Below are positions 3,955 to 17,372 of a stretch of 33,438 nt of DNA, in pieces. The stretch comes from an uncultured Acidimicrobiia bacterium. Its GTDB lineage: Bacteria; Actinomycetota; Acidimicrobiia; Spongiisociales; JAENVV01. Under the pieces are notes generated by a model. The model did not search any database, was not told the DNA's origin, and saw only the letters and a list, made by a program, of their open reading frames with translations. Made by a program: the position numbers and the translations under genes. Position 1 is the stretch's first letter; every line of letters starts with the position of its first letter. Where the stretch lies: NCBI GenBank assembly GCA_965366365.1, contig CBDUEV010000031.1, forward strand, positions 1-33,438, given 5' to 3'.

Positions 3955-4511
3955 CAGGTCACCCGGTTCGCTTCTTTGAACTGCACCGGCACGGACCCGA
4001 CGGCGTAGTCCTTGCGGAGAGGATGACCCACCCACTCATCGGGCATGAGGATCCGAGTCATGTCGGGATGGTCATCGAAGCTGATCCCGAAAAGGTCGTA
4101 GATCTCTCGCTCGAAGAAGTTGGCTCCGGGGTAGACAGGCACGAGGGATGGACAGGTCGGGTCGTCGGCATCGACGGGGATCCGCGCTCGCAGGCGCAGG
4201 CCGTGCTGGACGGAGAGCAAATTGGCCACGACCTCGAACCGCGTTCGCTTCTTGCCCAGGTAGTCGACGGCCGTGACGTCGGCGGCCATTTCGAAACCCG
4301 CCTCGTGTGCGGCCGTCGCGAAGGCTCGCCAGGTCTCCTTGGGAACCATCACCACGTCTTGTCGAGACGAGAGCATCCACTCGACATCGCCGAAGGGCTC
4401 GATGAGGTTCTTCAGAACGTCGTGGTCAGGAAGTGCTCGTTCCGGTTCGACAGGCGATTCGGTTTGGGTCTCTTCTGTTGCAGTCTCGTCAGTCACGGGC
4501 CAGCTCCCCAC
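3954..4511 (-). CDS. nuoC: NADH-quinone oxidoreductase subunit C (30-kDa subunit)
   Basis: NuoC motifs (FEVVANLLS..., [33 protein letters not shown]). GTG start at 4511, or alternatively GTG at 4496. It overlaps the nuoB 3' end. Confidence 0.92.
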
Positions 4512-4962
4512 TCGTGATCTTGTCCTGCAGCGTCAGAATGCCGTGGATGAGCGACTGAGGCCCGGGCGGGCAACCGGGGACGTAGACATCGACTGGCACG
4601 ACCTGGTCCACTCCCTGCACGAGCGCGTAGTTGTTGAACATGCCGCCCGTCGACGCGCAGGCACCCATCGAGATGACCCACTTGGGCTCGGGCATCTGGT
4701 CGTAGACCTGACGCAGCACCGGAGCCATCTTCTGAGACACCCGGCCCGCCACGATCATCAGGTCTGCCTGGCGCGGGGAGGCCCGAAAGACCTCCATGCC
4801 GAAACGGGCCAGGTCGTAGTGCGCCGTGCCCGTCGCCATCATCTCGATGGCGCAGCATGCCAGGCCGAACGTAGCGGGAAACATCGAGCGGGTGCGGGCC
4901 CACCGAGAAACCTTGTTGAGGTTCGTGAGCAGGAAGCCGGGAGGAGTGGTGGCCTGTGCCAT
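4489..4962 (-). CDS. nuoB: NADH-quinone oxidoreductase subunit B (20-kDa, [4Fe-4S] N2 subunit)
   Basis: [10 protein letters not shown]...[12 protein letters not shown]....[42 protein letters not shown]...VPGCPP. The ATG is directly adjacent to the nuoA stop. Confidence 0.95.
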
Positions 4963-5394
4963 CTAGGCGGCCCCGATCTTGGCCTGCTCCGGAGAGATGT
5001 CGCGCTGGATGCGACGCTCGCGCAGTGGCTGATTCCAATCCAAACCCCCGCGACCCCACACATACCCCAAGGTCTCCAGGACCAACACGGTGAAGATCCC
5101 GATCTCCAGAACGCCTAGCCATCCGAACTCGGGGTTGGGGAAGAGGACGGCCCACGCGAAGAGGAAGATCATCTCAACGTCGAAGATGACGAAGAGCATC
5201 GCCACGAGATAGAACTGGACCGGGAAGCGGTTCCGTGCCTCCGTCTCGGGAACGATGCCACACTCGTAGGGGGCGAGTTTCTCGGCGGTCGGTTTCTTCG
5301 GCGATACGAGGTATGCCAGCGACAGCGCTGCCACGACGAAGCCCACAGCCAACAGGAACATGATTGCAATCGGCAGATATGCCGGAAGGTCCAA
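4963..5394 (-). CDS. nuoA: NADH-quinone oxidoreductase subunit A
   Basis: YECGIVPETEARNRFPVQFYLVAMLFVIFDVEMIFLFAWAV. TTG start at 5394 with an AAGGAG Shine-Dalgarno 7 nt upstream. The N-terminal length matches actinobacterial NuoA. Confidence 0.9.
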   Translation of the reverse strand: MDLPAYLPIAIMFLLAVGFVVAALSLAYLVSPKKPTAEKLAPYECGIVPETEARNRFPVQFYLVAMLFVIFDVEMIFLFAWAVLFPNPEFGWLGVLEIGIFTVLVLETLGYVWGRGGLDWNQPLRERRIQRDISPEQAKIGAA

Positions 5395-5897: not shown

Positions 5898-7148
5898 TCA
5901 GCCTGTCAGAGAGCGCGGGGCCAACCGAATCATGCCTTCGAGCATGTGGTAGGCCCGATCTCCGATATGGCGGTCTTCTTCCTCGAGGAGGTTGGCCATC
6001 ACCTTGAGCACCCATTCCATGAGCGGCTTCGAGTGGAGCCCGGTGTGTGCCAGCGTCCGCATGACCGACGGGTAACCGATCAGTTTCACGAAGAGACGGG
6101 CCATCCGGTAGTAATCGCCATACGTCTCATCGAGTTCGGCCGGGTAGCGCTGAAGGAGGCCCAGATCATCGGCGACGAGCGCCTCGTGAATGTGCTCGGC
6201 GGCGAGACGCCCGGTCTCGTATCCGTAGGCGATGCCCTCTCCGTTCCACGGATTGATCGCCCCCATGGCGTCGCCCACCACCACCCAGTTGGCACCGGCG
6301 CGCGGGCCCTTGGAGAAGGACATCAGCAGCTTGCCGCCTTTGGGTTCGGAGAGTTGCGCCTCCTCGGACAGTTCCCAATGCTTCGGCGCAGCCTCGACAT
6401 AGTTCGCCATCATCGTGGTGGTGTTGACGTCCTTCCAATGCCGGAAGGTGGACAACAGGCCAACCCCGACATTGACGGTGCCGTCCCCCAGTGGAAACAC
6501 CCACCCATAGCCGGGCATGGAGTTCCCTGACTTGTCGCGAATATCGAGCTGGCTCTCCATGAACCCGTCTTGGGACATGGGTGAGGAGAAATAGCCGCGA
6601 GCCGCCAGACCCAACGGGTAATCCTTGTTTCTGACCGTCCCGAGCAGGCGACCGAAACGAGACGTCGACCCGTCGGCCACGACAACGACCTTGGCGCTCA
6701 TGATCTCGGTCTCGTCACCCGACGAGAGCGTGACGCCGGCCAGGCGGCCGTCGATCACGTGCGGCTTGGCTGTGGTCTTTGCTCTGATGACCGCCCCCTC
6801 CTTCTCGGCGAGGCGCGCCACCTGATCATCGAGGTCCATGCGCCGGATCACGCCGCCCCAGTTCGGGTACTTCGAATGCTGTGGCCACTCGAGTTCGAGA
6901 TGCAGCGAATCGCCCGCATAGGAGCGCAAGCCGACGATCTTGTGGAACTCCTGGCTGGCGAAATCGAACCCCATTTTCTGCAGCTCATAGATCGACCGGG
7001 GGGTGAGTCCGTCGCCGCAGGTCTTCTCGCGGGGGTACTCGCTCTTCTCGACCAGGACGACCGAATGTCCCGATCGCGCCAACCAATAGGCTGCCGCCGA
7101 GCCGGCCGGCCCACCACCCACCACCACAACATCAGGAGTGTTCGTCAT
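5898..7148 (-). CDS. Geranylgeranyl reductase family FAD-dependent oxidoreductase (MenJ-like menaquinone reductase candidate)
   Basis: N-terminal DVVVVGGGPAGSAAAYWLARSGHSVVLVEK...PREKTCGDGLTPRS is the GGR-family FAD fold. ATG start at 7146-7148. Confidence 0.85.
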   Translation of the reverse strand: MTNTPDVVVVGGGPAGSAAAYWLARSGHSVVLVEKSEYPREKTCGDGLTPRSIYELQKMGFDFASQEFHKIVGLRSYAGDSLHLELEWPQHSKYPNWGGVIRRMDLDDQVARLAEKEGAVIRAKTTAKPHVIDGRLAGVTLSSGDETEIMSAKVVVVADGSTSRFGRLLGTVRNKDYPLGLAARGYFSSPMSQDGFMESQLDIRDKSGNSMPGYGWVFPLGDGTVNVGVGLLSTFRHWKDVNTTTMMANYVEAAPKHWELSEEAQLSEPKGGKLLMSFSKGPRAGANWVVVGDAMGAINPWNGEGIAYGYETGRLAAEHIHEALVADDLGLLQRYPAELDETYGDYYRMARLFVKLIGYPSVMRTLAHTGLHSKPLMEWVLKVMANLLEEEDRHIGDRAYHMLEGMIRLAPRSLTG

Positions 7149-7242: not shown

Positions 7243-7260
7243 TTGTGAAACCAGTCACAA
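7243..7260 (+). promoter_or_regulatory. Rex operator (ROP-like) TTGTGAAACCAGTCACAA, overlapping the rex start codon, with a TATATT -10-like hexamer at 7233-7238
   Basis: 17 of 18 positions match the actinobacterial Rex consensus TTGTGAA-N4-TTCACAA (by direct comparison). The GTG start of rex at 7245 lies inside the site, and TATATT lies 7 nt upstream of GTG. Confidence 0.6.
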
Positions 7261-7868
7261 TCCCGAGAGCCACCGTGGCCCGATTGCCTCTGTACCTCCA
7301 GTGCCTGGAAGGACTCGGCACCGAAACGCCCACCGTCTCTTCACAAGAGCTGGCGGTTATCGCCAACGTCAACTCGGCCCAGGTCCGCAAGGACCTGTCC
7401 TACCTCGGCTCGCACGGCGTCCGTGGCGTCGGCTACCAGCGGGCGGCCTTGGTCGACCTGATCCGACAGGAACTGGGACTCACCCACGAGTGGCCGATCG
7501 TCATCATCGGGGCCGGGAACCTCGGTTCCGCCCTCGCCAACTACGGCGGTTTTGCTGCAGCTGGATTCACCCTGGTCAGCGTCTACGACGTGGATCACAC
7601 CAAGATCGGGTCGGCCGTCGGTGGCATCACCGTGCGGAGCCTCGATCAGCTCGAAGCGGATGTCGCCGCACGGGACGTGGCGATGGGCGTGGTCACGACC
7701 CCCGCGGCGGCCGCCCAGGAAAGCGTCAACCGCCTCGTGGCGGCAGGGGTTCGTTCGATCCTCAACTTCGCCCCGTTCGTGGTGCAGGTCCCGAAGGGTG
7801 TCGACGTCCGGCATGTCGATCTTTCGACCGAACTTCAGATTCTCAGCTTCTATCGGGCTCGTCGCTGA
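7245..7868 (+). CDS. rex: Redox-sensing transcriptional repressor Rex
   Basis: IPRATVARLPLYLQCL... is the Rex N-terminal wHTH signature, and the Rossmann fold follows (VIIGAGNLGSALANY). GTG is the only in-frame start upstream of the conserved IP.ATV motif. There is no room for a leader or Shine-Dalgarno, so the mRNA is probably leaderless. Confidence 0.9.
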   Translation: MKPVTIPRATVARLPLYLQCLEGLGTETPTVSSQELAVIANVNSAQVRKDLSYLGSHGVRGVGYQRAALVDLIRQELGLTHEWPIVIIGAGNLGSALANYGGFAAAGFTLVSVYDVDHTKIGSAVGGITVRSLDQLEADVAARDVAMGVVTTPAAAAQESVNRLVAAGVRSILNFAPFVVQVPKGVDVRHVDLSTELQILSFYRARR

Positions 7869-7882
7869 CGACCCGTAGGGAG

Positions 7883-8242
7883 CTATTCGATCTGGCGGTT
7901 CTGTTCCTGTTCGAAACGGCTCAGCGCCACCATGAACATGACGAACAGAATCGCTGCGCCGAACATGAACGTCAGCGGCAGGATGCGGATCTCGAAGGCG
8001 TTCAAGCCTTCGAAGTTGGTCGGGCGCGGGCCGCGCGGGGCGTACAGCACAAACAACAAGGAGTTGAGCGCGCTCCATCCGAAGATTCCCGCCCCGGAGA
8101 CCAGAAACGCCAGCCTCTTACCGAGGTTCGTCGCCAGGATGAGGTAAGCCGTGCCGAAGAACACCAGGAAGCTGACGATGGTGAGCAGAATGCCGGTGAA
8201 CATCAGGTTGGCAGAGAGAATCTCTCTCATGAGTTCGCGCAT
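7883..8242 (-). CDS. Small hydrophobic membrane protein (119 aa, about 3 TM), last gene of the bc-type operon
   Basis: The ATG lies 4 nt after the diheme cytochrome c stop. The protein is strongly hydrophobic. No recognisable family. Confidence 0.55.
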   Translation of the reverse strand: MRELMREILSANLMFTGILLTIVSFLVFFGTAYLILATNLGKRLAFLVSGAGIFGWSALNSLLFVLYAPRGPRPTNFEGLNAFEIRILPLTFMFGAAILFVMFMVALSRFEQEQNRQIE

Positions 8243-8245
8243 GGC

Positions 8246-9673
8246 CTACCTCAACCTCTCGCCGCGTAGGTATTGAATGAGCAAATCGAGATCGGCTTCC
8301 GAGAGCACTTGCCCGAACGCCGGCATGTAGCCTCGCCCGATCCCGTTGACGCCATAACCCACGCCCTCCTCGGAACCCTTACCCAAGAAATCCTTCATGT
8401 CGTCGGCCGTGAGGAACTGAACGTTGGCTCGGCCATCCCACAGGGCCGGTCCAAAGGCGCCGGAGCCGATAGGGGCGGTGTAGGCGGGACCTGACGAGTA
8501 GCCGGCCGTGTGGCAGCGTGCGCAATACGACTGATACAAGCCCACCGCCCGCTCGGCCTCGGCCAGGTTGCCGTCGAAGGTGGCGTCGGCGACAGCCTGG
8601 AGGTCGACGGCATAGTCCCGGTTCTCTTGGGCGGCGAGAAGGAACTCCAACCCGGCTTCCGCTTGCTCGCGCAGCACGTCGGCGCGTTCGACGGTCAGGG
8701 TGAGGCCGTTGACCTCCTCCTCGAGCTTGGCGACGGCGCCGCTGACCAGGACCAGGTCTCCTTCGCCGGTGCCGAGTGTGTCGGGGTTCTCGACGTCGGC
8801 CAAGATGGCTGCCAGCCCCGGGTAGCCCGTGGCGGCAGCCTCGGTGGTGATGGCGGTGATGGCGGCCTCGGCCGTGTCAGAAACACCGTCTTCGTCGGTG
8901 TCGATACCTTCTCCGGCGGCATCGAGCGCACTTCGACCGGATGCGGCCAGAGGTTCCAGGACGGCCAGGAAGCCTGGAGCGTCGTCGATCTCCTGCAGCA
9001 GAGCCATCTGCGCTTCGATCGAGCCTTCCACCCGTGCGTCGGCCTCGGCGAGCTCGCCGAGCGCAGCGCTCACCCGCCCGTCCACCTGGGCGAGGGCCTC
9101 CTCCTGCGAAATCTGAATCGACTTCAGATACTCGAGCACTTCGTCGATCTGCTGCTCGTTCATGGGGCCGCCGCCGTCGGTCCCCCAGGCGGGCATCGGC
9201 GAATTGGGGCGGCCGTAGACGAGCCAGAATGTGATCTCCTCGTCGTCGTACCGGTAGGTGATGTCATTGAGGGCGGGAGCCGTCCACGCGACGGTGACGC
9301 CGCTGCGCTTGTCCACATAGCCGGCGGCGCCTCCGACGAGATCCGGACCGTGACACGAAGCGCACGCGAACTCTTCCACGTGCTCCAAGCCGCGCTCCAA
9401 GCCCTCTTCCTCGAACTGATGGACGAATCCTTCCTGGCGATCGATCTCCCCGAGCCAGTACACGGGGATCGAGATGGCGAGGACAGCCGAGAGGATCACC
9501 GACACCGACAGCACTCGATCGAGGCGACGGTTCTCGAGTTCGTCGTCGGTCTTGTACGGGTCGAGGTTGGGAGCGATCTCGTTGGAGCTCCGGCCGCGCA
9601 TCCCGGAGGCGACCAGGAAGGCCAACCAGCCCAACGCGCCCAGGGCTACAACGACGATGACGATACTGCTCAT
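8246..9673 (-). CDS. Membrane-anchored diheme cytochrome c (QcrC-like) with a long acidic insertion
   Basis: N-terminal TM, two CxxCH motifs (CASCH, CARCH), and MPAWG/MPAFG Met-ligand motifs. The ATG lies 3 nt after the Rieske stop. Confidence 0.85.
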   Translation of the reverse strand: MSSIVIVVVALGALGWLAFLVASGMRGRSSNEIAPNLDPYKTDDELENRRLDRVLSVSVILSAVLAISIPVYWLGEIDRQEGFVHQFEEEGLERGLEHVEEFACASCHGPDLVGGAAGYVDKRSGVTVAWTAPALNDITYRYDDEEITFWLVYGRPNSPMPAWGTDGGGPMNEQQIDEVLEYLKSIQISQEEALAQVDGRVSAALGELAEADARVEGSIEAQMALLQEIDDAPGFLAVLEPLAASGRSALDAAGEGIDTDEDGVSDTAEAAITAITTEAAATGYPGLAAILADVENPDTLGTGEGDLVLVSGAVAKLEEEVNGLTLTVERADVLREQAEAGLEFLLAAQENRDYAVDLQAVADATFDGNLAEAERAVGLYQSYCARCHTAGYSSGPAYTAPIGSGAFGPALWDGRANVQFLTADDMKDFLGKGSEEGVGYGVNGIGRGYMPAFGQVLSEADLDLLIQYLRGERLR

Positions 9674-9676
9674 GCG

Positions 9677-10552
9677 TTATCCACCGATACAGCTCGGACC
9701 TTGGGGGTACTTCGCAGATTTCACGACGGCACGCTCTGACTCGATGACCTGGCCGGTCTTGATGATGAAACGGCCATCCCTGTCTTCAACCACGAAGCGA
9801 TCGAGATTCCGAGGGGCCGGGCCGGCTTCGTACTCTCCCGAGACGTTGTATTTGGACCCGTGGCAGGGGCACTCGAACCCCTGCGAGGCATCGCACCAGG
9901 GAACACGGCAGCCCAGGTGAACGCATTTCTGGAAGAGCGCCATCAAACCGCCCACGGCCACATTGGCTTCGCTGAATTGCGACCCGGAGAGAGCGTCATC
10001 GCCGATGGGCACGATCCAGGATTTCGCTTCCGGCCAGAACACCGGGGTGATCGATCCGTCGGCCTGGAAAATCTGATTCCGGATCTCGGTCACGTCCCCC
10101 GCATCCACGTCCGACCCGAATCCACCCTTCACGCGTGGCCAGGCAAAGGAGAAAGAAGCCAAACCGACCAGACCGAGGAAGCCGAAGAAGCTTCCGGCCA
10201 GAGCACGGGTGAAGAACATCCGGCGAGTCACGCCGGCCTCCATCGGCGACAGTTCGACGACCTGGCGCACCACCTCCGACCGGACCGCCGGGGCCGAAGG
10301 CTCACTCGGGGTTTCGGTATCCGGGGCCACCGTCTCCGCCGGCGCGACCGTGTCGGCCGATGCTTCGGTCGCCGCCCGGGCAGCGACGATCCCGGCTGGG
10401 ACTCCCTTGTCGGCCTTGCGGGCATCGCGATCGAGCGCGTCTTTCCAAGCGGCATCGCGGGTGCTTTGCCGGTAGGCGATTCCGAAGGCCGCCAAGGCGG
10501 CGAATACCGCCACGGCCCCTACGAGAAGGAAGATCAGGTTCTGCGTCGTCAT
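9677..10552 (-). CDS. Rieske [2Fe-2S] iron-sulfur subunit of the bc-type complex
   Basis: CVHLGC...CPCHGS boxes and N-terminal TM helices. ATG at 10550-10552 overlaps the upstream stop (ATGA). The ORF-track start at 10849 over-extends. Confidence 0.9.
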   Translation of the reverse strand: MTTQNLIFLLVGAVAVFAALAAFGIAYRQSTRDAAWKDALDRDARKADKGVPAGIVAARAATEASADTVAPAETVAPDTETPSEPSAPAVRSEVVRQVVELSPMEAGVTRRMFFTRALAGSFFGFLGLVGLASFSFAWPRVKGGFGSDVDAGDVTEIRNQIFQADGSITPVFWPEAKSWIVPIGDDALSGSQFSEANVAVGGLMALFQKCVHLGCRVPWCDASQGFECPCHGSKYNVSGEYEAGPAPRNLDRFVVEDRDGRFIIKTGQVIESERAVVKSAKYPQGPSCIGG

Positions 10553-11778
10553 TCGAGGTTCACCCAGTCCTTGATGTCGTCGAAGTAGATGCCGTCCGAC
10601 CATGGGTAGGTGAAGTTGAAGCCAGGACCTCGGAACAACACACCCAGGATGGTGAGCATGGCGGCCCCCATGATGAAGTACGTGTACATGAAGATGGCGA
10701 ACTTCCTGTCCGAGGGCTTGTTGGACGGATTCCGGTCGACGTAGGGAATCGCCATGAATCCGACGAGCCCCACGATGGTGGGAACCGTCACACCGGCGAT
10801 CTGCGGGTCGAAGTAGGAGAGAAGTTCCTGAAGTCCGAGGAAGTACCACGGCGCCTTGGAGGGGTTGGGGGTGGCGTTGAAATTGGCGGCTTCCAGCAGC
10901 GGCGCCTGCAGACTGACCGACATCACGATCAGAACGGCGGTCACGGCGAGGAGCACGGCGAACTCGGCGATCATGAGATGCGGCCAGGTGTTCACCTTGT
11001 CGGTGGGCTCAGCCTTGACCTGTTGAATCGCTTTCGCTTTGACGACCGTCAGCAAGCGCTGGGTGCGGACACCCTCTGGCGCGGTTTCGGCTGGAGCGGT
11101 TGGCCGGACTGCCGTGGCGACCGCCGCCCCCGCTCCACCCGCCGCCGGGGTTTCGACCGCGGAGGCCGCGGGCGCATCCTCTTGCGGGATCGGCAGGTCG
11201 ACCACCTCGGCCTCAGGTGCCGGTGGGGCCTCAGGTGCCGATGGGGCGGCCGGTTCAGGGGTTGCCGGTTCAGCATCTGCCGGTTCAGCATCTGCCGGTT
11301 CAGGGGTTGCCGGGGTTGGGGCCGCAGCGGGAGTCTCGGGTGCCTCGTCTCCGAGCATCTCTGCCAGTACTGCGGCTTCTGAGGCGCCTGTGGCTTTCGC
11401 CTTGGCCTCGACCGACCGTTGCAGCAGCGAAGCCGGCATTCCGGCGCGCTCGGCTGCGGCGGCATAGTCCACGGGACCGCCGGCCGGCGCCGGGGCAGGG
11501 GCGGCTGGCGCTGCCGGCTCCGGTGCCGGGGCCTCGGGTTCGGGAGCCTTCGGTGCCGGCGCCTCGGGTTCTGGCGCCTCGGGTTCTGGCGCGGTCGGCT
11601 CGGCGGGCGGCGCAGCTTCGGTCGATGCAGGAGTCGTCGCCTCGGTGGCCGCAGGGGCCACATCGATCGGAGGACCTTCGCCCTTCATCTCGGCGAGCAC
11701 CTGCTCGACCGGAATGCCGAGGGCTTTCGCCTTCGCTTCGGCAGACCGTCGGAGGAGATGCTCTGGGATGTCAGCCAT
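10549..11778 (-). CDS. Cytochrome b C-terminal (subunit IV / PetD-like) protein with a long N-terminal extension. The extension is two copies of a ~35-aa helical module plus Pro/Ala/Glu-rich linkers.
   Basis: C-terminal WPHLMIAEF...SKAPWYFLGLQELL...P (PEWY-type Qo motif, variant APWY). AAGGAG Shine-Dalgarno 10 nt upstream of ATG 11776-11778. Low-complexity PEPEAP repeats were seen. Confidence 0.8.
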   Translation of the reverse strand: MADIPEHLLRRSAEAKAKALGIPVEQVLAEMKGEGPPIDVAPAATEATTPASTEAAPPAEPTAPEPEAPEPEAPAPKAPEPEAPAPEPAAPAAPAPAPAGGPVDYAAAAERAGMPASLLQRSVEAKAKATGASEAAVLAEMLGDEAPETPAAAPTPATPEPADAEPADAEPATPEPAAPSAPEAPPAPEAEVVDLPIPQEDAPAASAVETPAAGGAGAAVATAVRPTAPAETAPEGVRTQRLLTVVKAKAIQQVKAEPTDKVNTWPHLMIAEFAVLLAVTAVLIVMSVSLQAPLLEAANFNATPNPSKAPWYFLGLQELLSYFDPQIAGVTVPTIVGLVGFMAIPYVDRNPSNKPSDRKFAIFMYTYFIMGAAMLTILGVLFRGPGFNFTYPWSDGIYFDDIKDWVNLE

Positions 11779-11790
11779 CGATGGTGCTCC

Positions 11791-12579
11791 TTACAGCGGC
11801 CCTGAGATGCCGCCGTCCTTGCGGACTCGCCAGAAGTGTACGGCCATGAATATGACGATGATGAACGGGAAGAAGAGGACGTGGAGGACATACCAGCGGA
11901 GGATGGTGTCGGCCGACACTTCCACCGCGCCCAGCAGCAAGAACTTCACCTGGCCGCCGAACACCGGCACGAAGCCCGCCATGTTGGTCCCCACTGTCAC
12001 GGCCCACAGGGCGAGTTGATCCCACGGGAGCAGATATCCGGTGAACGAAAGCAAGAGGGTGAGCAGGAGGAGGATCACACCCACGACCCAGTTGAACTCG
12101 CGGGGAGGCTTGTAGGCGCCGTGATAGAAGACCCGGGACATGTGCAGGAACACCGACAAGACCATGAGGTGGGCGCCCCATCGGTGCATGTTGCGCACCA
12201 GAGAACCGAAAGCCACGGCCGTGGACAGCTCTGCGGTGTCTGCGTAGGCCGCTTCCGCCGTCGGGGCGTAATAGAACATCAAGAAGATGCCGGTGATGGT
12301 CAGCAGGATGAACAAGAAGAAACTGATCCCACCCAGGCACAATGTATAGGAGAGGCGCACCCCATGTCGCTTCACCTTCACCGGATGAAGGTGATAGAGG
12401 ACGTTGTTCATGACGACATAGCTCCGGTTGCGCGGAGAGTCCGAATAGCCCTTCTTGAAAGGGGATCCTGGACGGAGAACCGACTCCATCACCTGTGAAC
12501 CATGGAGCCGACTCCACAGGTCGCTGCCGGCGGTCTTCGCCTTCTCGAGGAGGCCGGTATTTCCGTTTTCGTTCGCCAA
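11791..12579 (-). CDS. Cytochrome b6-type (split cytochrome b, N-terminal four-helix part)
   Basis: His pairs in helices B and D ([17 protein letters not shown]; [22 protein letters not shown]). TTG start with GGAG upstream; the exact start is uncertain. Confidence 0.88.
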
Positions 12580-12599
12580 GTTCTGCTCCGTCTTCCTGA

Positions 12600-13049
12600 T
12601 TACATTCGCAGACCGTAGACGTAACCGTTCTTGTGGTCACGTTGGCCTGTGTCGATTTCCCAGGGCGCAAGGCCGGAGGCGGCCGCCTCATCGGACAAGG
12701 AACCCTCGAACTTCCCCAGAGTGATGACACCCGTCGGGCACCGATCGATGCAGAGAGCGCACCTCGTGCACTCATCCTCGTCCACGAGAAAGAACCCTTT
12801 GGCGTCGGGATCTGCCGACGGGTTCGCCACCCCGTGGGCTTCCGCGATGGCGTCGAGAGAGAGGTAGTGGATACATTTCCAGGGACAGATGTCGACGCAG
12901 CCCTCACAGAGGATGCACTCGGCCTGGTCGATGTGCAGGAACTGCTTGGGTTTCACGGCCGCCGTCAGGAAGGATCCGTCAACCACCGCCAACTGATAGT
13001 CGTCACGGATGGGCGGTATCTCGAACCAGACGTCACGGGGGGCAGCCAT
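12600..13049 (-). CDS. 2x[4Fe-4S] dicluster ferredoxin-like protein
   Basis: Two CxxCxxCxxxCP motifs ([24 protein letters not shown]). The ATG abuts the stop of the upstream membrane protein. Confidence 0.85.
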
Positions 13050-13688
13050 CTACTGCTCCGGCTCCGACTTGACGACCCTGGTCAAGGGTCGGCCATACGG
13101 CGAAACCTTGGCCACCTCGGTGACCGGACCACCCTTACCGAAATCCTGAATCTTGTAGGCGAACACGATGGCGGCCCCGAGCATGACCATGTGGTATCCG
13201 CCCGAGATGGCGTCTTTGACCACGGCCAAGCTGATGCTCACTTCATTGTTGAGGACGAGCCATCGCGGCAAGGTGAAGGCTTTTTGGGGAGTCCACCCGA
13301 GCGGGCCTTGGGCCAGGTTGAGCCATTCCGACGGAATGATCCCGAAGAAGACCACCAACTCGAACCAAGCGATGAGAGACACGAAAGAGGCACGGGCCCA
13401 CGTCATCGGTTTCCCGATCACCCACAACAACAGACACGCCACCACGATGAGCTGTGAGCCGCCGATGGCCACGATCTGCCCGAGTGTCACAACCGCGAAA
13501 TGGCGAGGGATCCAGCCGAGGTAGTCTACGTCGACAGGGACATCGACCCCATCGATGAATACCGTTTCCGGGAAATTGGCGTAGTGGGCGACGACGACGC
13601 CGAGGGCAATCGCCACGAAACCAGCCAAGAACAAGGTCGCGCCGGCAACCCGTCGCTGCGATTCGGTCATGTTTGCCAGTCGGTTCAT
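13050..13688 (-). CDS. Polytopic membrane protein of unknown family, first gene of the bc-type operon
   Basis: 4-5 predicted TM segments. Start chosen at ATG 13686-13688 (MNRLANM...); the ORF track gives TTG at 13727. No recognisable motif. Confidence 0.5.
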   Translation of the reverse strand: MNRLANMTESQRRVAGATLFLAGFVAIALGVVVAHYANFPETVFIDGVDVPVDVDYLGWIPRHFAVVTLGQIVAIGGSQLIVVACLLLWVIGKPMTWARASFVSLIAWFELVVFFGIIPSEWLNLAQGPLGWTPQKAFTLPRWLVLNNEVSISLAVVKDAISGGYHMVMLGAAIVFAYKIQDFGKGGPVTEVAKVSPYGRPLTRVVKSEPEQ

Positions 13689-14062
13689 GTGCGTTCCAAC
13701 AATCCACCGTGCATGGTCGAAGGGCAACTAGCCCACTCTCAGTCCCGAGACCCGACCAGCCTGGCTGTCAGCGTGAGCCGATCGTGTTGCCCAGATTACT
13801 AGCAGATATCCTCTTCGGCTCTCAATCCCGACGCCCGCATTCAGGCTGCTTTGACGGACCGCCCGGCGCACGGCAAAAATGAGCCGACGCCATTCGATGG
13901 GTGTCCGGGGCGAGTCCGTTATGATTCGGGCGCTTCCGCGCATGGCATGTTGAGGCGGCGCCGGCCAATCGGCGAAGCAGCAAGCGGCTATGGTCCGCCG
14001 ATCGGGCGGCTCGCCGGGAGCCGTGTATGTGATCGAGGCACACGAAACCGAGGAGCGCTGGT

Positions 14063-15502
14063 TTGGCAGTGAGTGCAACAGGGACCCGGACAAGGGGGAA
14101 TGTCTCTGGCGGCGATTCTGCCGCGCGCAGCGCCATGGTCATCTCCCTGGTTTTTCTCGTCCTGGCGGCGCTTCTCTCCTTCGTCGCCTCCCTCAAGTTT
14201 GCCTTTCCCTCGTTCGCCGACGGGAGCGCCCTGCTCTCGTACGGTCGTCTCCGCCCCATGGCCATCAACGCGTCCGTCTATGGCTTCCTCACCTTCAGCA
14301 ACCTCGCCGCCGTCTACTACCTGCTGCCGAGGCTGACCGGCACCCGGCTCTGGCAGGAACGACTGGCGGGTTTGAGCGTGGCCGTCACGGCCGCAGTCAC
14401 CGCATTGGCGATCTTCTCGGTCGGCTTCGGATTCAACGAGGGACAACTCCTCACCGAGTTCCCCCTCGTCATCGACATCATCCTGCTGGTCCTGTACCTG
14501 CTCCCCCTCCTGATCACCGTGCAGACGATCCGGGCGAGAACCGAGCAAAACATGTACATCAGTCTTTGGTACGTCCTCGCCGGACTCGTCTGGCTCGTCG
14601 GTTTGACGGTGGTGGGCAACATCCCGGGATCGGGCGGCGTGGCGTCCGCGCTCCAGAACCGCTTCTTCGTTTCGGGCCTCCTCGGAGTGTGGGTCATCGG
14701 CGTCGGAGTGGGAGCCGTGTACTACGTCCTCCCCAAGGCCACCGGCAACCCCCTGTACAGTCGCAACCTCGCCATGGCAGGTTTCTGGTCGCTGGTCTTT
14801 GCTCAGCTCTGGACGGGCGGCGCGTCGTTCGTCTTCGGTCCCGCCGGTGATTGGATCGAGACCGTGTCGGTGGTCTTCGCTCTCGCCATGGTGGTCCCAG
14901 CCCTCGCCGTGCTCGCCAACTTCATCGGCACTCTCGACGGGTCGTGGGATCTCATCCGCGACCGGTCGGAACTCCGGTTCGGCATCGTGGCCGCCATCAT
15001 GAGCGTGTTCCTGGCCGGCGTCACCGGCCTCCAAGGCTTCCGCTCGATCTCGGCGGTGGTGGGATTCACGACCTTCGAAGACGGGACTCGCTACGGACTC
15101 ATCTTCGGCGTCGGATATCTGTTGGCGGCCTCCTTCCTCTATCACGCCGTGCCGCGCTCCATGGGACGGGCACTGTTCTCGGAAGGCCTCGGTCGACTTC
15201 ACCTGCGACTCACGCTGTGGGGTGTGGGCGGGGTTGTCATCCTCACCTGGCTGGCCGGTCTCGCCTCGGGTTACACCTGGCTCGGCGGCGTGACGACCGG
15301 ATCCTTCGACAGCGTCGGCACCGGTTTCATCGAAACGCTGGACAACGTGCGCTCTCTGTACGTTCTGGCGGCAATCGCCGCGGCGGTGGCACTGGCCGGG
15401 CAGCTCGCTTTCGCCACCAACGTGTACCGAACGATCACCTCCGGAGAGCCGGTGGATCGGGAGATCCTCGTGGAAGTCCAGGACGAGGAGGTGGGAGCGT
15501 GA
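14063..15502 (+). CDS. CcoN-like (cbb3-type heme-copper oxidase subunit I fold) membrane protein lacking all canonical His metal ligands
   Basis: 12-TM protein with blocks alignable to CcoN (GRLRPMAINASVYGF; YYVLPKATGNPLYSRNLAMAGFW; TLDGSWDLIRDR). Only 2 His in 479 aa. TTG start with AGGAG 7 nt upstream. Confidence 0.8.
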   Translation: MAVSATGTRTRGNVSGGDSAARSAMVISLVFLVLAALLSFVASLKFAFPSFADGSALLSYGRLRPMAINASVYGFLTFSNLAAVYYLLPRLTGTRLWQERLAGLSVAVTAAVTALAIFSVGFGFNEGQLLTEFPLVIDIILLVLYLLPLLITVQTIRARTEQNMYISLWYVLAGLVWLVGLTVVGNIPGSGGVASALQNRFFVSGLLGVWVIGVGVGAVYYVLPKATGNPLYSRNLAMAGFWSLVFAQLWTGGASFVFGPAGDWIETVSVVFALAMVVPALAVLANFIGTLDGSWDLIRDRSELRFGIVAAIMSVFLAGVTGLQGFRSISAVVGFTTFEDGTRYGLIFGVGYLLAASFLYHAVPRSMGRALFSEGLGRLHLRLTLWGVGGVVILTWLAGLASGYTWLGGVTTGSFDSVGTGFIETLDNVRSLYVLAAIAAAVALAGQLAFATNVYRTITSGEPVDREILVEVQDEEVGA

Positions 15503-16338
15503 GCGAACATTCGGCAGCCGTGGCCGCCGCGCTCGGCGTCCCCGAGGACCTCGTCATCAAGTCGGCCACGGCGCGGGCCCAGGCTTCAGGAAGCACAACG
15601 GAGGAAGTCCTGGCGGCCTGGAGCGGCGGCGGAGAGGTCCCGGCGGCCGCTCCGAGCGCCACGCCCCCCGCCACCGACGAGGCCCAGGCGGCGACCCCAC
15701 CGGCTACCGATCCCGCTCCGGCCGACATGTCCCCGGAACCCGGGGAAGCCGGCGCCGAATCACCGCTTCCTGTGGAGGGCGCCCCTGTCTCGTCACCTGG
15801 CGGATCTGGCCCGGTCACCGTCATCGATCGCCGGGCGAAGGCCGCCCCGATACTGACCGGCCGCCGCGATCGACCCCTCCTGGTACTCGCCGGCCTCGTG
15901 GCATTGTTCGTCCTCGGCGCCGTCTTTGCCGTCAGCCTGCCCGGGGCTGAGGCTCGGAACCTGGCGGCCGATCAGCTGCCCGGAACCACTCCTCAGCTCA
16001 GCGAATTGGCCCAGGAAGGTAGAGAGATCTATCTCACGGAAGGTTGCTTCTACTGCCACACCCAACTCGTACGATCGGTGGTGACCGACGTCGGGCTGGG
16101 CACGGTGACCGAACCCGGGACCGCACCCAGCCTGTCACCCGAGACGTATGGCTTCCAGCGGGTCGGACCCGATCTCACCCACGTTGGATCGCGTGAGCCG
16201 ACCAACGATGCGGCCTGGCTGCGTAGCTACCTGGAAGACCCCACGGCCGAGCGACCGGGGACGCTCCAGCCCAGCTACGCGTACCTGTCGGACAATGAGA
16301 TGGACGCACTCGTGCAGTTCCTCCTGGAATCGGAGTAG
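15499..16338 (+). CDS. CcoO-like membrane-anchored monoheme cytochrome c with an N-terminal helical module
   Basis: GTG start overlaps the CcoN-like stop (GTGA) and is preceded by GGAGG. One TM helix, then REIYLTEGCFYCHTQLVR...GPDLTHVGSR...YLSD (CcoO-like). The ORF-track entry 14851..16338 is the same frame, over-extended. Confidence 0.8.
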   Translation: MSEHSAAVAAALGVPEDLVIKSATARAQASGSTTEEVLAAWSGGGEVPAAAPSATPPATDEAQAATPPATDPAPADMSPEPGEAGAESPLPVEGAPVSSPGGSGPVTVIDRRAKAAPILTGRRDRPLLVLAGLVALFVLGAVFAVSLPGAEARNLAADQLPGTTPQLSELAQEGREIYLTEGCFYCHTQLVRSVVTDVGLGTVTEPGTAPSLSPETYGFQRVGPDLTHVGSREPTNDAAWLRSYLEDPTAERPGTLQPSYAYLSDNEMDALVQFLLESE

Positions 16339-16343
16339 GTCGA

Positions 16344-17372
16344 ATGAGCGATTTTCTCGCCGCCGCCGCTGCCGCCGTAGGTGGGCCGGAAGAGCTCGTC
16401 GAGCGATCGGCCCGCGCCCGCGCCGCAGCCACGGGTGCGGACTACGAAGCGATACTCCAGGCTTGGGCCGGCGGCGGTGAAGCGCCTGCCCCGTCGACAG
16501 TGTCCGGTTCAGCACCTGCCGCCGCGGAGGAGCCATCGGCGCCGGAAACGCAGCCACCAGCCGAGGCACCTTCCGAAGCTCCGGCAGAGGCGCCGGACCC
16601 GCCCGCACCGTCGGGCGTGGAAGCCGCCGCGGACGAGGGTCGGGATGCTCCCCGCGTCGTCGAGGGCCCTCCCCCACCCGCAACGGTGAGCGTCGAGGAA
16701 GCCGCCGATTGGGAGGTGGTGACCACCGTCCCGGCTGCCGGCCTCAAGGAACGAACCGCTTCGCTCATTCCTGCCTGGCTGATGGGTTTCTTCGTTCTCA
16801 TTCCGCTCTTTGCGGTCGCCTACATCGCCGTGTACTCGAACGGACCTGAGTGCGGGTCGGGCGGCCAGCTCAGGGTCGATTTCCGCAATCAACTCGTCAA
16901 CTGCGACGGATCCGCCTACGAGGGCGCGGGCGGGCCTGGCGGTGGCGGGATCAACTACGTGGCGATCGGTGCGGACGTCTACACCAATGTGGCTCAGTGC
17001 GCAGGATGTCACGGTTCCGACGGTGGCGGTGGCAGTGCCGGCCCCACCCTCTTGGGGGTCAACGGGACCTTCGGTTCCTGCGCCGACCACCAACAGTGGA
17101 TCACTCTGGGCAGCCAAGGATGGATCGACACGATCGGCCCGAACTATGGGGATGCCAACAAGCCGGCCGGGGGCTTCGGAGCCAAGATGCCCGGTTTCGC
17201 CTCACTCACAGCCGAGCAACTCGCGGCCGTGACCGTGTACGAGCGGGTGGTGTTCGGCGGAGCAGGCATCGATGAAACACTCGAGAATTGTGGCCTCGTA
17301 GAGACCGAAGAGGCACCAGATGAGGCACCGACCGATGCCGAAACGACCCCAACCACAGAGCCCGCTTCCTGA
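16344..17372 (+). CDS. Membrane-anchored monoheme class-I cytochrome c (CcoP-like C-domain) with an N-terminal helical module
   Basis: GGAGTAGG Shine-Dalgarno. The N-terminal module and a Pro/Ala/Glu linker are followed by one TM helix, a single CAGCH, and an MPGF Met ligand. Confidence 0.8.
   Translation: MSDFLAAAAAAVGGPEELVERSARARAAATGADYEAILQAWAGGGEAPAPSTVSGSAPAAAEEPSAPETQPPAEAPSEAPAEAPDPPAPSGVEAAADEGRDAPRVVEGPPPPATVSVEEAADWEVVTTVPAAGLKERTASLIPAWLMGFFVLIPLFAVAYIAVYSNGPECGSGGQLRVDFRNQLVNCDGSAYEGAGGPGGGGINYVAIGADVYTNVAQCAGCHGSDGGGGSAGPTLLGVNGTFGSCADHQQWITLGSQGWIDTIGPNYGDANKPAGGFGAKMPGFASLTAEQLAAVTVYERVVFGGAGIDETLENCGLVETEEAPDEAPTDAETTPTTEPAS

Follow-up and report, generated by a model that had tools for sequence, protein, structure and literature searches.

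The window analysed here is a stretch of 33,438 nt from an uncultured Acidimicrobiia bacterium. Between positions 7883 and 13688 its minus strand carries seven close-packed genes, encoding a membrane protein (memA), a ferredoxin, a cytochrome b6, a subunit-IV-like protein (SUIV), a Rieske protein, a diheme cytochrome c and a small membrane protein (memB). As read from the sequence, the TAG stop of memA abuts the ATG of the ferredoxin gene (0 nt), followed by gaps of 20 nt (ferredoxin to cytochrome b6) and 12 nt (cytochrome b6 to SUIV), an ATGA overlap between SUIV and Rieske, and 3 nt on either side of the cytochrome c gene. Shine-Dalgarno-like GGAG and AGGAG stretches lie upstream of starts, and terminator-like sites inside the cluster are not above chance (three found, 4.1 expected). 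All seven genes were present in the order and with the tight packing, 0-20 nt or overlapping, described by a first-pass annotation. Its span of 7883-13727 holds for the gene set, but not for the upper end, because the first gene most likely begins at ATG 13688. The seven genes form one real operon.

This arrangement is the norm in all Acidimicrobiia genomes sampled. The collinear, same-strand order was found in 80 of 80 species-level genomes, and the seven-gene order is identical in relatives wherever contigs permit. The initial description of the operon as unusual for an actinobacterium is therefore right only against the qcrCAB of Actinomycetes; within Acidimicrobiia, every sampled genome has it. 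The ferredoxin and memA/memB are strictly linked with the cytochrome genes, without a single separation across 160 related loci that cover 49-91% identity, which speaks against unrelated neighbourhoods of these genes elsewhere. With the ferredoxin as query (80 loci), cytochrome b6 was immediately downstream in 67/68 cases and memA immediately upstream in 77/77. Profile searches of each subunit recovered the core domains, and neither membrane protein matched a family.

The cytochrome b6-type subunit (11791..12579, minus strand; 262 aa, four helices; Pfam Cytochrome_B, 156 bits) has histidine pairs spaced by 13 and 14 residues, with the helix-D spacing being 14, a conserved N-terminal extension of ~55 aa, and the heme-cn motif CLGG, which is kept in 80/80 genomes. 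It scores above the cutoff of the NCBIfam model ExtP (298.6 bits, cutoff 290), and only 116 bits with the actinobacterial model bc1_QcrB_actin (cutoff 500). The best PDB match is chloroplast cytochrome b6 (164 bits), aligned end-to-end to residue 215, as compared with ~80 bits for mycobacterial QcrB; the identity to Brevibacillus QcrB is 41%. By these sequence criteria the cytochrome is of the b6 type, and the complex may contain haem cn.

The division of cytochrome b into two genes is real. A frameshift from sequencing or assembly between 11778 and 11793 in an unsplit gene, for which only the narrow spacing (12 nt) of the two open reading frames could be cited, is already refuted and has a negligible probability: the b6 frame closes with the canonical GISGPL, a TAA and the Shine-Dalgarno sequence AGGAG, the exact 262-aa protein occurs with identical gene boundaries on 23 public contigs from several samples, a separate b6 (about 250-262 aa) is followed by SUIV in 80/80 related genomes, and over 260 unrelated residues lie between the end of b6 and the core of SUIV.

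SUIV (10549..11778, minus strand; 409 aa; Cytochrom_B_C, 30.8 bits) combines a C-terminal part with three transmembrane helices and a long N-terminal extension of ~260 residues, which is cytoplasmic and rich in Pro, Ala and Glu, and in which a 40-aa module occurs twice. The C-terminal part carries APWY as its Qo motif, as in 76/77 orthologues, so that both the motif variant and the extension noticed initially are borne out. SUIV matches PetD of 1q90, and its score with the NCBIfam model ExtQ (51.8 bits) is under the cutoff of 150. Its Glu272, within WPHLMIAEF, aligns with the Glu in WPNFLLKEW of Brevibacillus QcrC, and an equivalent was present in 106 of the 122 regex matches to WP-x5.

The Rieske [2Fe-2S] protein (9677..10552, minus strand; Pfam Rieske, 31.5 bits) starts at the ATGA overlap, and its length of 291 aa is also found in independent gene calls. 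It has an extra N-terminal transmembrane helix and a basic cytoplasmic loop of 92 aa, and a twin-arginine motif (TRRMFF) precedes the second helix. The cluster boxes are CVHLGC and CPCHGSKY, the second being CPCHGS. in nearly all orthologues. This S-Y signature predicts a potential above 260 mV (PMC4122944), and hence a Rieske protein of the high-potential type, a prediction from a signature of two residues. The best PDB matches are b6f-type proteins and those of the anammox bacterium Kuenenia, with 9rk4 second and 9rk3 fourth; the Kuenenia Rieske proteins were measured at +303 and +335 mV (PMC12954380). The membrane-anchored diheme cytochrome c (8246..9673, minus strand; 475 aa) is predicted to have two N-terminal transmembrane helices, followed by two CxxCH domains (Cytochrome_CBB3 and Cytochrom_C) with an acidic, Ala-rich insert of ~200 aa between them. 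Both CxxCH motifs are present in 67/72 orthologues. No solved cytochrome in the PDB matched its sequence at E<=0.01. The earlier characterisation of the complex as heliobacterial/Bacillus-like thus applies to the b6/SUIV core, but not to the c subunit.

The remaining three genes encode the ferredoxin, memA and memB. The 2x[4Fe-4S] ferredoxin-like protein (12600..13049, minus strand; Fer4 families) is acidic (149 aa, pI 4.5) and carries two CxxCxxCxxxCP motifs, both retained in 76/77 orthologues. It should be cytoplasmic, because neither a signal peptide nor a transmembrane segment was found. PDB searches gave generic ferredoxin-domain matches only, and the domain search gave no flavin or nucleotide domain; an AF2 model reached a pLDDT of only 43.5, too low for docking. 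The family was not found in other gene contexts. It has specific N- and C-terminal extensions with conserved blocks, one of 15 residues (letters not shown) and QRD..NGY.YG.R (153 unique sequences). With a median identity of 67% the ferredoxin ranks next after cytochrome b6 in conservation among the operon's proteins, compared with 44% for both Rieske and cytochrome c. This high identity, together with conserved blocks outside the cluster-binding core, fits the multi-surface contacts of a bound subunit.

The orphan protein memA (13050..13688, minus strand; 212 aa, four transmembrane helices) could also be read from a TTG at 13727, to which its open reading frame extends; homologue lengths and the genes called independently on public contigs favour the ATG at 13688. 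Two stretches of memA are invariant: the motif PSEWLNL, predicted to face outward, and the tail SPYGRPL at the cytoplasmic C-terminus. Domain searches assigned it to no family, no relatives were found among known respiratory subunits, and memA is confined to this gene context. For memB (7883..8242, minus strand; 119 aa), an open reading frame with no Pfam or NCBIfam family, a counterpart at the same position was detected in 54/80 genome loci (E<=1e-5).

Across a divergent intergenic region, the plus strand encodes a distant cbb3-type (C-family) haem-copper oxidase, a divergent neighbour of the operon in 39/80 genome loci. It consists of a CcoN-like catalytic subunit (14063..15502; COX1, 141 bits; TIGR00780 ccoN, 172 bits, under the cutoff of 583), a CcoO-like monohaem subunit called as a gene of 279 aa (15499..16338; FixO, 67.5 bits), and, in the CcoP position, a third cytochrome c with a membrane anchor (16344..17372; 342 aa; Cytochrom_C, 33.3 bits).

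A split/APWY cytochrome b was already reported in 2014 for Ilumatobacter (Acidimicrobidae) and Rubrobacteridae (Kao and Hunte, PMC4122944), and the APWY clade corresponds to groups A1/A2 of Baymann et al. 2012 (PMC3509893). The papers on this clade cover cytochrome b and Rieske only, whereas for the dicluster ferredoxin, memA and memB as partners we found no description in the literature. The clade and our operon share the split into four and three helices, the APWY motif, the CxGG haem-cn motif and a Rieske protein of the mid-plus to high signature class. They differ in that WCMGG is typical of the clade, as opposed to CLGG, and in the gene order, with Rieske first in the clade and b6-SUIV-Rieske here. 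The clade is presumably also subfamily G of Dibrova et al., and we know of no member that has been biochemically characterised.

Acidimicrobiia proteins carry the PGAP label "selenite/tellurite reduction operon cytochrome ExtP", after NCBIfam models that come from Geobacter ExtOPQ in the extHIJKLMNOPQS cluster (PMC5877670). Both systems encode a b6 above the ExtP equivalog cutoff, followed by an ExtQ-like protein with three transmembrane helices, and a Rieske protein. The name is nevertheless misleading, because SUIV is far under the ExtQ cutoff, the rhodanese, porin, selenocysteine cytochrome, and 10- and 12-haem cytochromes of the ext cluster are missing in the window, and the ext cluster has no ferredoxin or memA.

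The highest b6 similarity is to cyanobacterial/chloroplast b6f and Firmicute/heliobacterial b6c complexes, with which the helix-D spacing of 14 and CxGG are shared, as is the SUIV Glu with Firmicute QcrC. In contrast, cytochrome f, PetG, PetL, PetM and PetN are missing here, the Qo motif is APWY instead of PEWY or PDWY, and the diheme c is a separate protein, while in Bacillus the c domain is fused to SUIV. Ferredoxin is a soluble partner of b6f, but is encoded within the Acidimicrobiia operon. With the QcrCAB (bcc) of Mycobacterium and Corynebacterium, members of the same phylum, it shares the menaquinol substrate, a diheme c subunit, a Rieske protein with extra N-terminal transmembrane helices and an internal Tat motif, and a complex likely wired directly to an oxidase. 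However, actinobacterial QcrB is unsplit (535-573 aa), both NCBIfam models score far under cutoff (QcrB 116 against 500, QcrA 27 against 275), QcrCAB lacks the haem cn motif and a ferredoxin, and its oxidase is aa3 rather than cbb3-like.

The comparison with anammox bacteria drawn in the first-pass annotation was apt, as indicated by the Kuenenia Rieske proteins among the closest PDB matches. The complexes Kuste4569-4574 and Kustd1480-1485 (PMC12954380; Kartal et al. 2013) also have a split b6-type core with the CxGG motif, a high-potential Rieske with menaquinone, and an iron-sulfur protein predicted at the cytoplasmic side beside haem cn. The place of the 149-aa, two-cluster protein is taken there by a large NAD(P)-oxidoreductase, which contains FAD and four Fe-S clusters; the anammox complexes bear multihaem or HAO subunits, whereas the p-side acceptor in Acidimicrobiia is a diheme c encoded beside an oxidase.

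We propose, at a probability of roughly 0.55, that the operon encodes the menaquinol:cytochrome c reductase (complex III) of Acidimicrobiia, a b6-type member of the APWY clade with a bound ferredoxin port. Acidimicrobiia use MK-9(H6/H8) (PMC12263773, PMC11697166). Menaquinol would be oxidised at a Qo site built from cytochrome b6, SUIV and Rieske. One electron would pass through the Rieske cluster and the diheme cytochrome c to the divergently encoded oxidase, the likely acceptor of the complex, and the other would travel across the membrane by way of the two b haems, reaching on the cytoplasmic side a haem cn that is bound covalently. As for the acidic 2x[4Fe-4S] protein, it would most likely be a permanently bound cytoplasmic subunit, perhaps anchored by memA, which has an invariant cytoplasmic tail and may itself be a subunit, or by the extensions at the cytoplasmic N-termini of b6 and SUIV. 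Beside haem cn, its two clusters would serve as an electron port, and it is this likely port that probably joins cytoplasmic ferredoxin chemistry to haem cn on the n-side.

As the first-pass annotation suggested, the ferredoxin may be a subunit that adds a low-potential branch, and electrons may pass through it in either direction. The preferred one is input: reduced ferredoxin from pyruvate/2-oxoglutarate:ferredoxin oxidoreductases would be oxidised at the port, and its electrons would then reduce menaquinone at the Qn site. If so, the ferredoxin:quinone reductase activity that cytochrome b6f has long been proposed to have, with ferredoxin donating to haem cn, would here be built into the complex. 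POR and OGOR are near-universal in Acidimicrobiia (PMC11697166). The reverse, quinol-driven ferredoxin reduction, would also be possible, as proposed for anammox complexes. Several points weigh against the proposal of a bound ferredoxin port with electron input. The b6/APWY core functions without a ferredoxin, since both sequenced relatives inspected, the Geobacter ExtOPQ (PMC5877670) and Aureibacter clusters, have none. Furthermore, no ferredoxin-cytochrome or memA-ferredoxin fusions were seen, which counts against the two as subunits, and reverse operation has been proposed for the whole APWY clade (Kao and Hunte, PMC4122944).

Two alternatives are about equally improbable. The first takes memA and the ferredoxin as assembly or maturation factors, which for example attach the single-thioether haem cn or keep it reduced, in a role analogous to that of the CCB (System IV) pathway in chloroplasts and cyanobacteria. 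The two genes are a translationally abutted pair at the 5' end of the operon and always occur together with a CLGG-bearing b6, memA is unlike known respiratory subunits, and APWY-type clusters elsewhere work without either gene (PMC5877670; Aureibacter cluster). However, the CxGG enzymes of Geobacter and Firmicutes manage without such genes, similarity of the ferredoxin or memA to CCB proteins or haem lyase families was not detected, and conservation of the ferredoxin over its whole length, second in the operon, would sooner be expected of a structural partner present in stoichiometric amounts. To our knowledge, no route of haem cn maturation is known outside phototrophs, which favours dedicated factors, and other non-phototrophs with a CxGG motif appear to lack the CCB pathway.

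In the second, an unlikely reading as well, quinol-based electron bifurcation makes low-potential electrons. The high-potential branch from Rieske through cytochrome c to the oxidase would push the second electron onto b haems of very low potential and on through haem cn to the [4Fe-4S] clusters, yielding reduced ferredoxin for POR/OGOR-dependent CO2 fixation (roTCA). Such bifurcation was proposed to make NAD(P)H in anammox Rieske/cytochrome b complexes, where the mismatch between Rieske and menaquinone underlies the argument that the bP haem of Kuenenia may lie at potentials down to -475 mV (PMC12954380). The same mismatch is predicted here, with an S-Y high-potential Rieske joined to low-potential menaquinone (PMC4122944; PMC12263773), and argues for output over the preferred input, as does the resemblance of the Rieske domain to the Kuenenia proteins. 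Autotrophy by roTCA, with POR and OGOR highly expressed, was shown in an Acidimicrobiia isolate (PMC11697166). Against bifurcation, only a signature of two residues underlies the predicted potentials, Glu272 as putative ligand of haem cn points to a potential near -50 mV for that haem and thus to an uphill barrier toward ferredoxin (a problem discussed in PMC12954380), and electron flow to the negative side opposes the membrane potential. Moreover, most Acidimicrobiia are heterotrophs, whose ferredoxin needs oxidising, not reducing.

Still less probable is an ordinary Q-cycle complex III, with the ferredoxin merely co-expressed as a soluble carrier or redox sensor, for example for another enzyme, and memA and memB as unrelated small membrane proteins retained through operon inertia. 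Four core subunits suffice for a Rieske/cytochrome b complex, no fusion ties the extra genes to it, and the complex is known here from its genes. Yet linkage holds strictly, whichever gene is taken as the starting point, in the 160 loci with their span of 49-91% identity, memA and the ferredoxin family are absent from any other gene context found, and the memA stop codon abuts the ferredoxin start codon. In addition, 149 aa with conserved extensions are unlike diffusible ferredoxins of 55-80 aa.

The cytoplasmic N-termini of the CcoO-like subunit and of the cytochrome c in the CcoP position bear the same 40-aa module as SUIV. The intergenic region between the two gene sets (13689..14062, 374 nt) gave no Rfam family, no Rex-type operator and one weak sigma-70-like match, within chance expectation; it contains an imperfect inverted repeat of 20 nt at 13960-14010.

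Seven consecutive open reading frames on the minus strand, between 7883 and 13727, make up the operon. In operon order, they encode a membrane protein (memA, 225 aa as read to 13727), a ferredoxin (149 aa, two CxxCxxCxxxCP motifs), a cytochrome b6 (262 aa, 11791-12579, Pfam Cytochrome_B), a subunit-IV-like protein (SUIV, 409 aa) whose C-terminal third matches the cytochrome b C-terminal/PetD domain (Pfam Cytochrom_B_C), a Rieske protein (291 aa, 9677-10552), a diheme cytochrome c (475 aa, 8246-9673, two CxxCH motifs) and a second membrane protein (memB, 119 aa). The genes follow each other after 0, 20 and 12 nt, then through an ATGA overlap, and finally after 3 and 3 nt. Their starts are preceded by Shine-Dalgarno-like sequences. 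Both Pfam and NCBIfam agree with the domain assignments of the operon genes, and place memA and memB in no family. On public contigs that contain an identical cytochrome b, independent gene calling yields proteins of 212, 149, 262, 409, 291, 475 and 119 aa. The coordinates of the first-pass annotation need a single correction, as the 212-aa call indicates that translation of memA probably begins at ATG 13688. Within the cluster, neither terminator-like or promoter-like signals above chance, nor Rfam families were found.

The operon is conserved throughout the Acidimicrobiia genomes examined. A genome scan seeded with the cytochrome b, using one genome per species, gave 80 Acidimicrobiia loci, among them Microthrix, Ilumatobacter, Iamiaceae and sponge symbionts, with cytochrome b identities of 72-91%. 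Searches by tblastn with the seven window proteins found the genes collinear and on the same strand at all 80 loci, and missing genes could be attributed to contig ends, with the exception of locus L053. Here, in an Ilumatobacteraceae MAG (CAVUUX010000008.1, 8001-8714), a solitary cytochrome b6, 78% identical, lies without the other six genes nearby, between an ORF for a large kinase-like membrane protein and a gene for a sigma factor. It could be a paralogue that stands alone, or a product of faulty assembly. Separate b6 and SUIV genes are present in all 80 genomes, and the exact 262-aa protein occurs on 23 contigs from several samples, which excludes a frameshift or artefact as the origin of the split. 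Close homologues of the same length number in the thousands, and the named ones all come from Acidimicrobiia.

Because the scan was seeded with the cytochrome b, a reciprocal test was run, in which a ferredoxin profile served as the query and recovered 80 metagenome loci. The cytochrome b6 gene lies immediately downstream of the ferredoxin gene in 67 of the 68 loci with sequence available, and 226 nt away in the remaining one, while memA is found immediately upstream wherever the sequence extends far enough (77/77). In these loci, the dicluster protein and the orphan membrane protein never turned up apart from the b6-type operon. Of the two findings that would have refuted the first-pass annotation, unlinked neighbourhoods and a frameshift, neither was observed, and its observation is confirmed. 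No gene fusions were found among the memA or ferredoxin homologues; in the long members of these families the N-terminus was called wrongly, and one of them appears to be a permease chimera.

The conserved operon encodes a Rieske/cytochrome b complex of the b6 type, which has the APWY and CxGG motifs and a membrane-anchored diheme cytochrome c. The split falls between helices D and E, as in b6-type enzymes, leaving a four-helix b6 (262 aa, ending in GISGPL) and a three-helix SUIV (409 aa, with three hydrophobic segments in its core) as separate ORFs, with Cytochrome_B and Cytochrom_B_C on different proteins. The haem-ligand histidine pairs of b6 are separated by 13 residues in helix B and by 14 in helix D, again the b6-type arrangement. 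The b6-type CxGG motif (CLGG in the window) is present in 80 of 80 orthologues and would supply the cysteine for a covalent haem cn (ci) on the cytoplasmic side (motif definition in PMC5600118 and PMC4122944), a haem experimentally verified only in b6f, Bacillus and heliobacteria (PMC4122944). Among solved structures, the best matches of b6 are the chloroplast and cyanobacterial b6 (~164 bits, aligned to the last residue), compared to ~80 bits for mycobacterial and corynebacterial QcrB, whose PDB chains have 535-573 aa. In SUIV, the Qo motif reads KAPWYF, and APWY is found in 76 of 77 orthologues. SUIV Glu272 (WPHLMIAEF) aligns with the Glu of WPNFLLKEW in a Firmicute QcrC, and 106 of 122 matches to the regular expression WP-x5 have a Glu at this position, close to which low-potential enzymes have been cited to use a Glu as axial ligand of haem cn (PMC12954380). 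In the HMMER alignment, Glu272 falls one residue before Phe40 of Chlamydomonas PetD, and the equivalence is for this reason probable and not proven.

By these motifs and the Rieske signature, the core would belong to the APWY clade, described yet biochemically uncharacterised, which was defined by Kao and Hunte in 2014 by split genes, CxGG and mid-plus to high-potential Rieske partners (PMC4122944). The same study noted that Ilumatobacter (Acidimicrobidae) and Rubrobacteridae depart from other Actinobacteria in having a split cytochrome b, placed Ilumatobacter in the APWY clade, and stated that no APWY complex had been characterised (PMC4122944). For the position of the window b6 in this clade, the published placement of Ilumatobacter and the match of b6 to the ExtP equivalog model give indirect support. 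The same diverse "green-clade" relatives were described by Baymann et al. (PMC3509893) and Dibrova et al. (PMC5600118), who also brought up the idea that cytoplasmic Fe-S oxidoreductases are anchored to the membrane by small cytochromes b. A plasmid collection searched with the cytochrome b6 gave only distant matches (≤51% identity), and a cluster of Aureibacter in this collection has an unsplit b, a Rieske protein and a multihaem cytochrome c, without a ferredoxin.

The Rieske protein carries CPCHGSKY, the S-Y signature, which predicts a potential above 260 mV (PMC4122944), and CPCHGS. recurs in nearly all Rieske orthologues, in agreement with the mid-plus to high-potential partners of the APWY clade. 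Two Rieske proteins of Kuenenia, 9rk4 and 9rk3, are its second and fourth best PDB matches, with measured potentials of +303 and +335 mV (PMC12954380). The protein has an additional N-terminal transmembrane helix, followed by a basic cytoplasmic loop of 92 aa, and a twin-arginine motif (TRRMFF) just ahead of the second transmembrane helix. A similar layout is known for actinobacterial Rieske proteins inserted by the dual Sec/Tat route (PMC5449189), but the window Rieske has two helices, not three. The diheme cytochrome c has no sequence match in the PDB. An acidic, alanine-rich and probably helical insert of ~200 aa (residues ~190-370) separates its two haem c domains, and the lengths of its orthologues differ widely among loci.

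The ferredoxin is acidic (pI 4.5), and as it has no signal or transmembrane segment, it should be cytoplasmic, that is, on the same side as haem cn. Diffusible dicluster ferredoxins have only a third to half of its 149 aa. It has a long insert between the cluster motifs, and conserved blocks are seen in its N- and C-terminal extensions over 153 unique sequences. Its median identity across genomes (67%) is second to that of b6 (78%), and ahead of the Rieske protein and the cytochrome c (44% each). A profile search against PDB sequences returned only generic ferredoxin-domain matches (polyferredoxin, NuoI, PsaC-type), and the AF2 model, built from an alignment of 29 close homologues, was unusable (pLDDT 43.5). 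The memA family is tiny and lineage-restricted, with 61 clusters among 1.84 billion representatives, all labelled hypothetical. Its structure was modelled confidently as four helices, for which the fold search found no relative, and a Pfam search with 31 family members at E≤1 gave only sub-threshold noise. By the positive-inside rule, the invariant PSEWLNL of memA faces outward and the invariant C-terminal tail SPYGRPL is cytoplasmic. The memB gene stands at the 3' end of the operon in most loci. In the literature searched on Acidimicrobiia cytochrome b6, Rieske and ferredoxin, no description of the ferredoxin, memA and memB as partners was found; an earlier mention is possible, yet as obligatory partners they appear to be undescribed.

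The composition was compared with that of several known systems. The actinobacterial QcrCAB complex has an unsplit QcrB of ~540 aa, and the window proteins stay far below its models, with 116 bits for b6 against NF050120 (cutoff 500) and 27.3 bits for the Rieske protein against NF050121 (cutoff 275). The NCBI pipeline labels the Acidimicrobiia b6 "selenite/tellurite reduction operon b-type cytochrome ExtP" (public proteins P0033, P0064, P0077, P0086, P0095 and P0103), and the window b6 does narrowly exceed the ExtP equivalog cutoff of NCBIfam (298.6 vs 290), whereas ExtQ falls below its own (51.8 vs 150). However, the extHIJKLMNOPQS cluster of Geobacter is without a ferredoxin, and its ExtH rhodanese, ExtI porin and ExtKL, ExtM, ExtN and ExtS multihaem cytochromes are not in the 33-kb window, where the neighbours are instead a cbb3-like oxidase, rex, a geranylgeranyl-reductase-like gene and nuoABCD. 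With the rest of the Ext cluster absent, the name ExtP is misleading. Anammox-type complexes have in common with this one an operon-encoded cytoplasmic Fe-S subunit. There it comes with an FAD/NAD(P)-binding domain and multihaem/HAO partners, whereas here it is a b6-linked 2x[4Fe-4S] protein of 149 aa with only Fer4-type domains and no export signal, and the c subunit has two haems. A periplasmic ferredoxin/NrfD module was also considered. In ACIII ActB/C, DsrOP and Qrc, this consists of a Tat-exported polyferredoxin and an NrfD-family subunit with 8-10 transmembrane helices; neither was found here, the ferredoxin being without a Tat signal and memA having four helices and no NrfD fold or family, and this candidate was rejected.

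There is good support for the complex working as a forward menaquinol:cytochrome c reductase, which would feed the neighbouring oxidase. With moderate support, the ferredoxin can be seen as a bound subunit on the n-side, near haem cn. On the boldest reading, the complex III of Acidimicrobiia would have a dedicated two-cluster ferredoxin subunit wired to haem cn, and would thereby join three partners, namely the menaquinone pool, the cytochrome c-oxidase chain and the cytoplasmic ferredoxin pool, in a three-way junction. It would act either as a Q-cycle-integrated ferredoxin:menaquinone reductase, or, by quinol bifurcation, reduce ferredoxin for carbon fixation through the roTCA. We give this reading a probability of about 35%, and consider the interpretation in the first-pass annotation as partly supported. 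Of the two possible directions, we favour an input, in which electrons from the ferredoxin would enter the complex and reach menaquinone. Such an input is downhill, it would offer aerobic heterotrophs a sink for the reduced ferredoxin derived from pyruvate and 2-oxoglutarate:ferredoxin oxidoreductases (POR and OGOR), and it parallels the ferredoxin:plastoquinone route that has been proposed for b6f. In the opposite direction, quinol bifurcation would send electrons toward a low-potential acceptor and reduce the ferredoxin. This output is a possible alternative: it would suit roTCA autotrophy, and the combination of a high-potential-type Rieske protein with menaquinone is the anomaly behind the bifurcation argument for anammox bacteria (PMC12954380). 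A serious rival is that memA and the ferredoxin act in maturation, in the attachment of haem cn. That the ferredoxin is merely co-expressed with the complex is unlikely, because the linkage is bidirectional.

Both the role of haem cn and the feeding of b6f-type complexes by ferredoxin have been debated since the first b6f structures. If the junction reading is true, this would be the first b6f-type enzyme with the proposed ferredoxin-to-haem-cn route hard-wired as a subunit. With the ferredoxin gene welded to the b6 gene in every genome examined, Acidimicrobiia, some of which are in culture, provide a system outside photosynthesis for addressing the question of electron transfer from ferredoxin to b6f-type complexes. 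They are an abundant aerobic class of Actinomycetota, and figure prominently in marine, freshwater, soil and wastewater communities. The mechanism is testable and potentially important. It would also help to account for the balance of reduced ferredoxin in aerobic Acidimicrobiia, which produce or require it through POR and OGOR, both reported as near-universal in the class (PMC11697166). The current labels "ExtP selenite/tellurite reduction cytochrome", "4Fe-4S binding protein" and "hypothetical protein" mislead metabolic reconstructions, and a joint annotation of the seven genes as one complex-III-type unit is called for.

The surroundings of the operon are respiratory. The divergent genes encode a distant cbb3-type oxidase, with CcoN-like and CcoO-like subunits and a third membrane cytochrome c, which is a neighbour in 39 of the 80 genomes. 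The likeness of this oxidase (14063-17372, plus strand) to cbb3 is only remote, with ccoN at 172 bits (cutoff 583) and ccoO at 64.8 (cutoff 200.65). The convergent rex gene (7275-7868, plus strand) lies 14 nt beyond memB. Fifteen nt upstream of its start codon, at 7243-7260, TTGTGAAACCAGTCACAA differs by one mismatch from the actinobacterial Rex operator consensus, and its position just before rex suggests autoregulation through this candidate site. It is the only Rex-like site in the window, a count not above chance, and the divergent promoter region of the operon held neither a Rex nor a CRP-type operator. Beyond rex follow a geranylgeranyl-reductase-like gene and nuoABCD. The former (5898-7148, minus strand) adjoins rex and other respiratory genes and encodes a flavoprotein of the geranylgeranyl-reductase family. 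This protein may reduce the side chain of menaquinone, in line with the MK-9(H6/H8) that cultured Acidimicrobiia contain (PMC12263773, PMC11697166). The nuoA, nuoB, nuoC and nuoD genes (2599-5394, minus strand) are followed, after ~190 nt, by an FG-GAP/SLH-domain protein (532-2406) instead of nuoE-N. The complex I gene set is partial or split, unless these genes belong to a second copy that is incomplete.

The two cytochrome c subunits of the oxidase have cytoplasmic low-complexity N-terminal extensions, estimated from the sequences at ~125-145 residues, which are unusual for CcoO and CcoP. A module of ~40 aa, AAAxxxGxPxxLVxRSAxA[KR]AxAxGxxxExxLxAWxGG, occurs in four copies in the cytoplasmic N-termini of three membrane-anchored respiratory subunits: twice in SUIV (11662-11766 and 11332-11460, minus strand; aa 5-39 and 107-149), and once each in the CcoO-like protein (15502-15633) and the third cytochrome c (16347-16478). 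After every copy comes a linker rich in Pro, Ala and Glu, and then a transmembrane anchor. The module may tether the complex and the oxidase to each other, or dock a common cytoplasmic partner. It has no match in Pfam, even at E≤10. An HMM made from the four copies matched 115 ORFs across the 80 related loci, namely in 44 SUIV, 29 CcoP-like, 23 CcoO-like and 17 unclassified proteins, and in two orthologues of the diheme cytochrome c.
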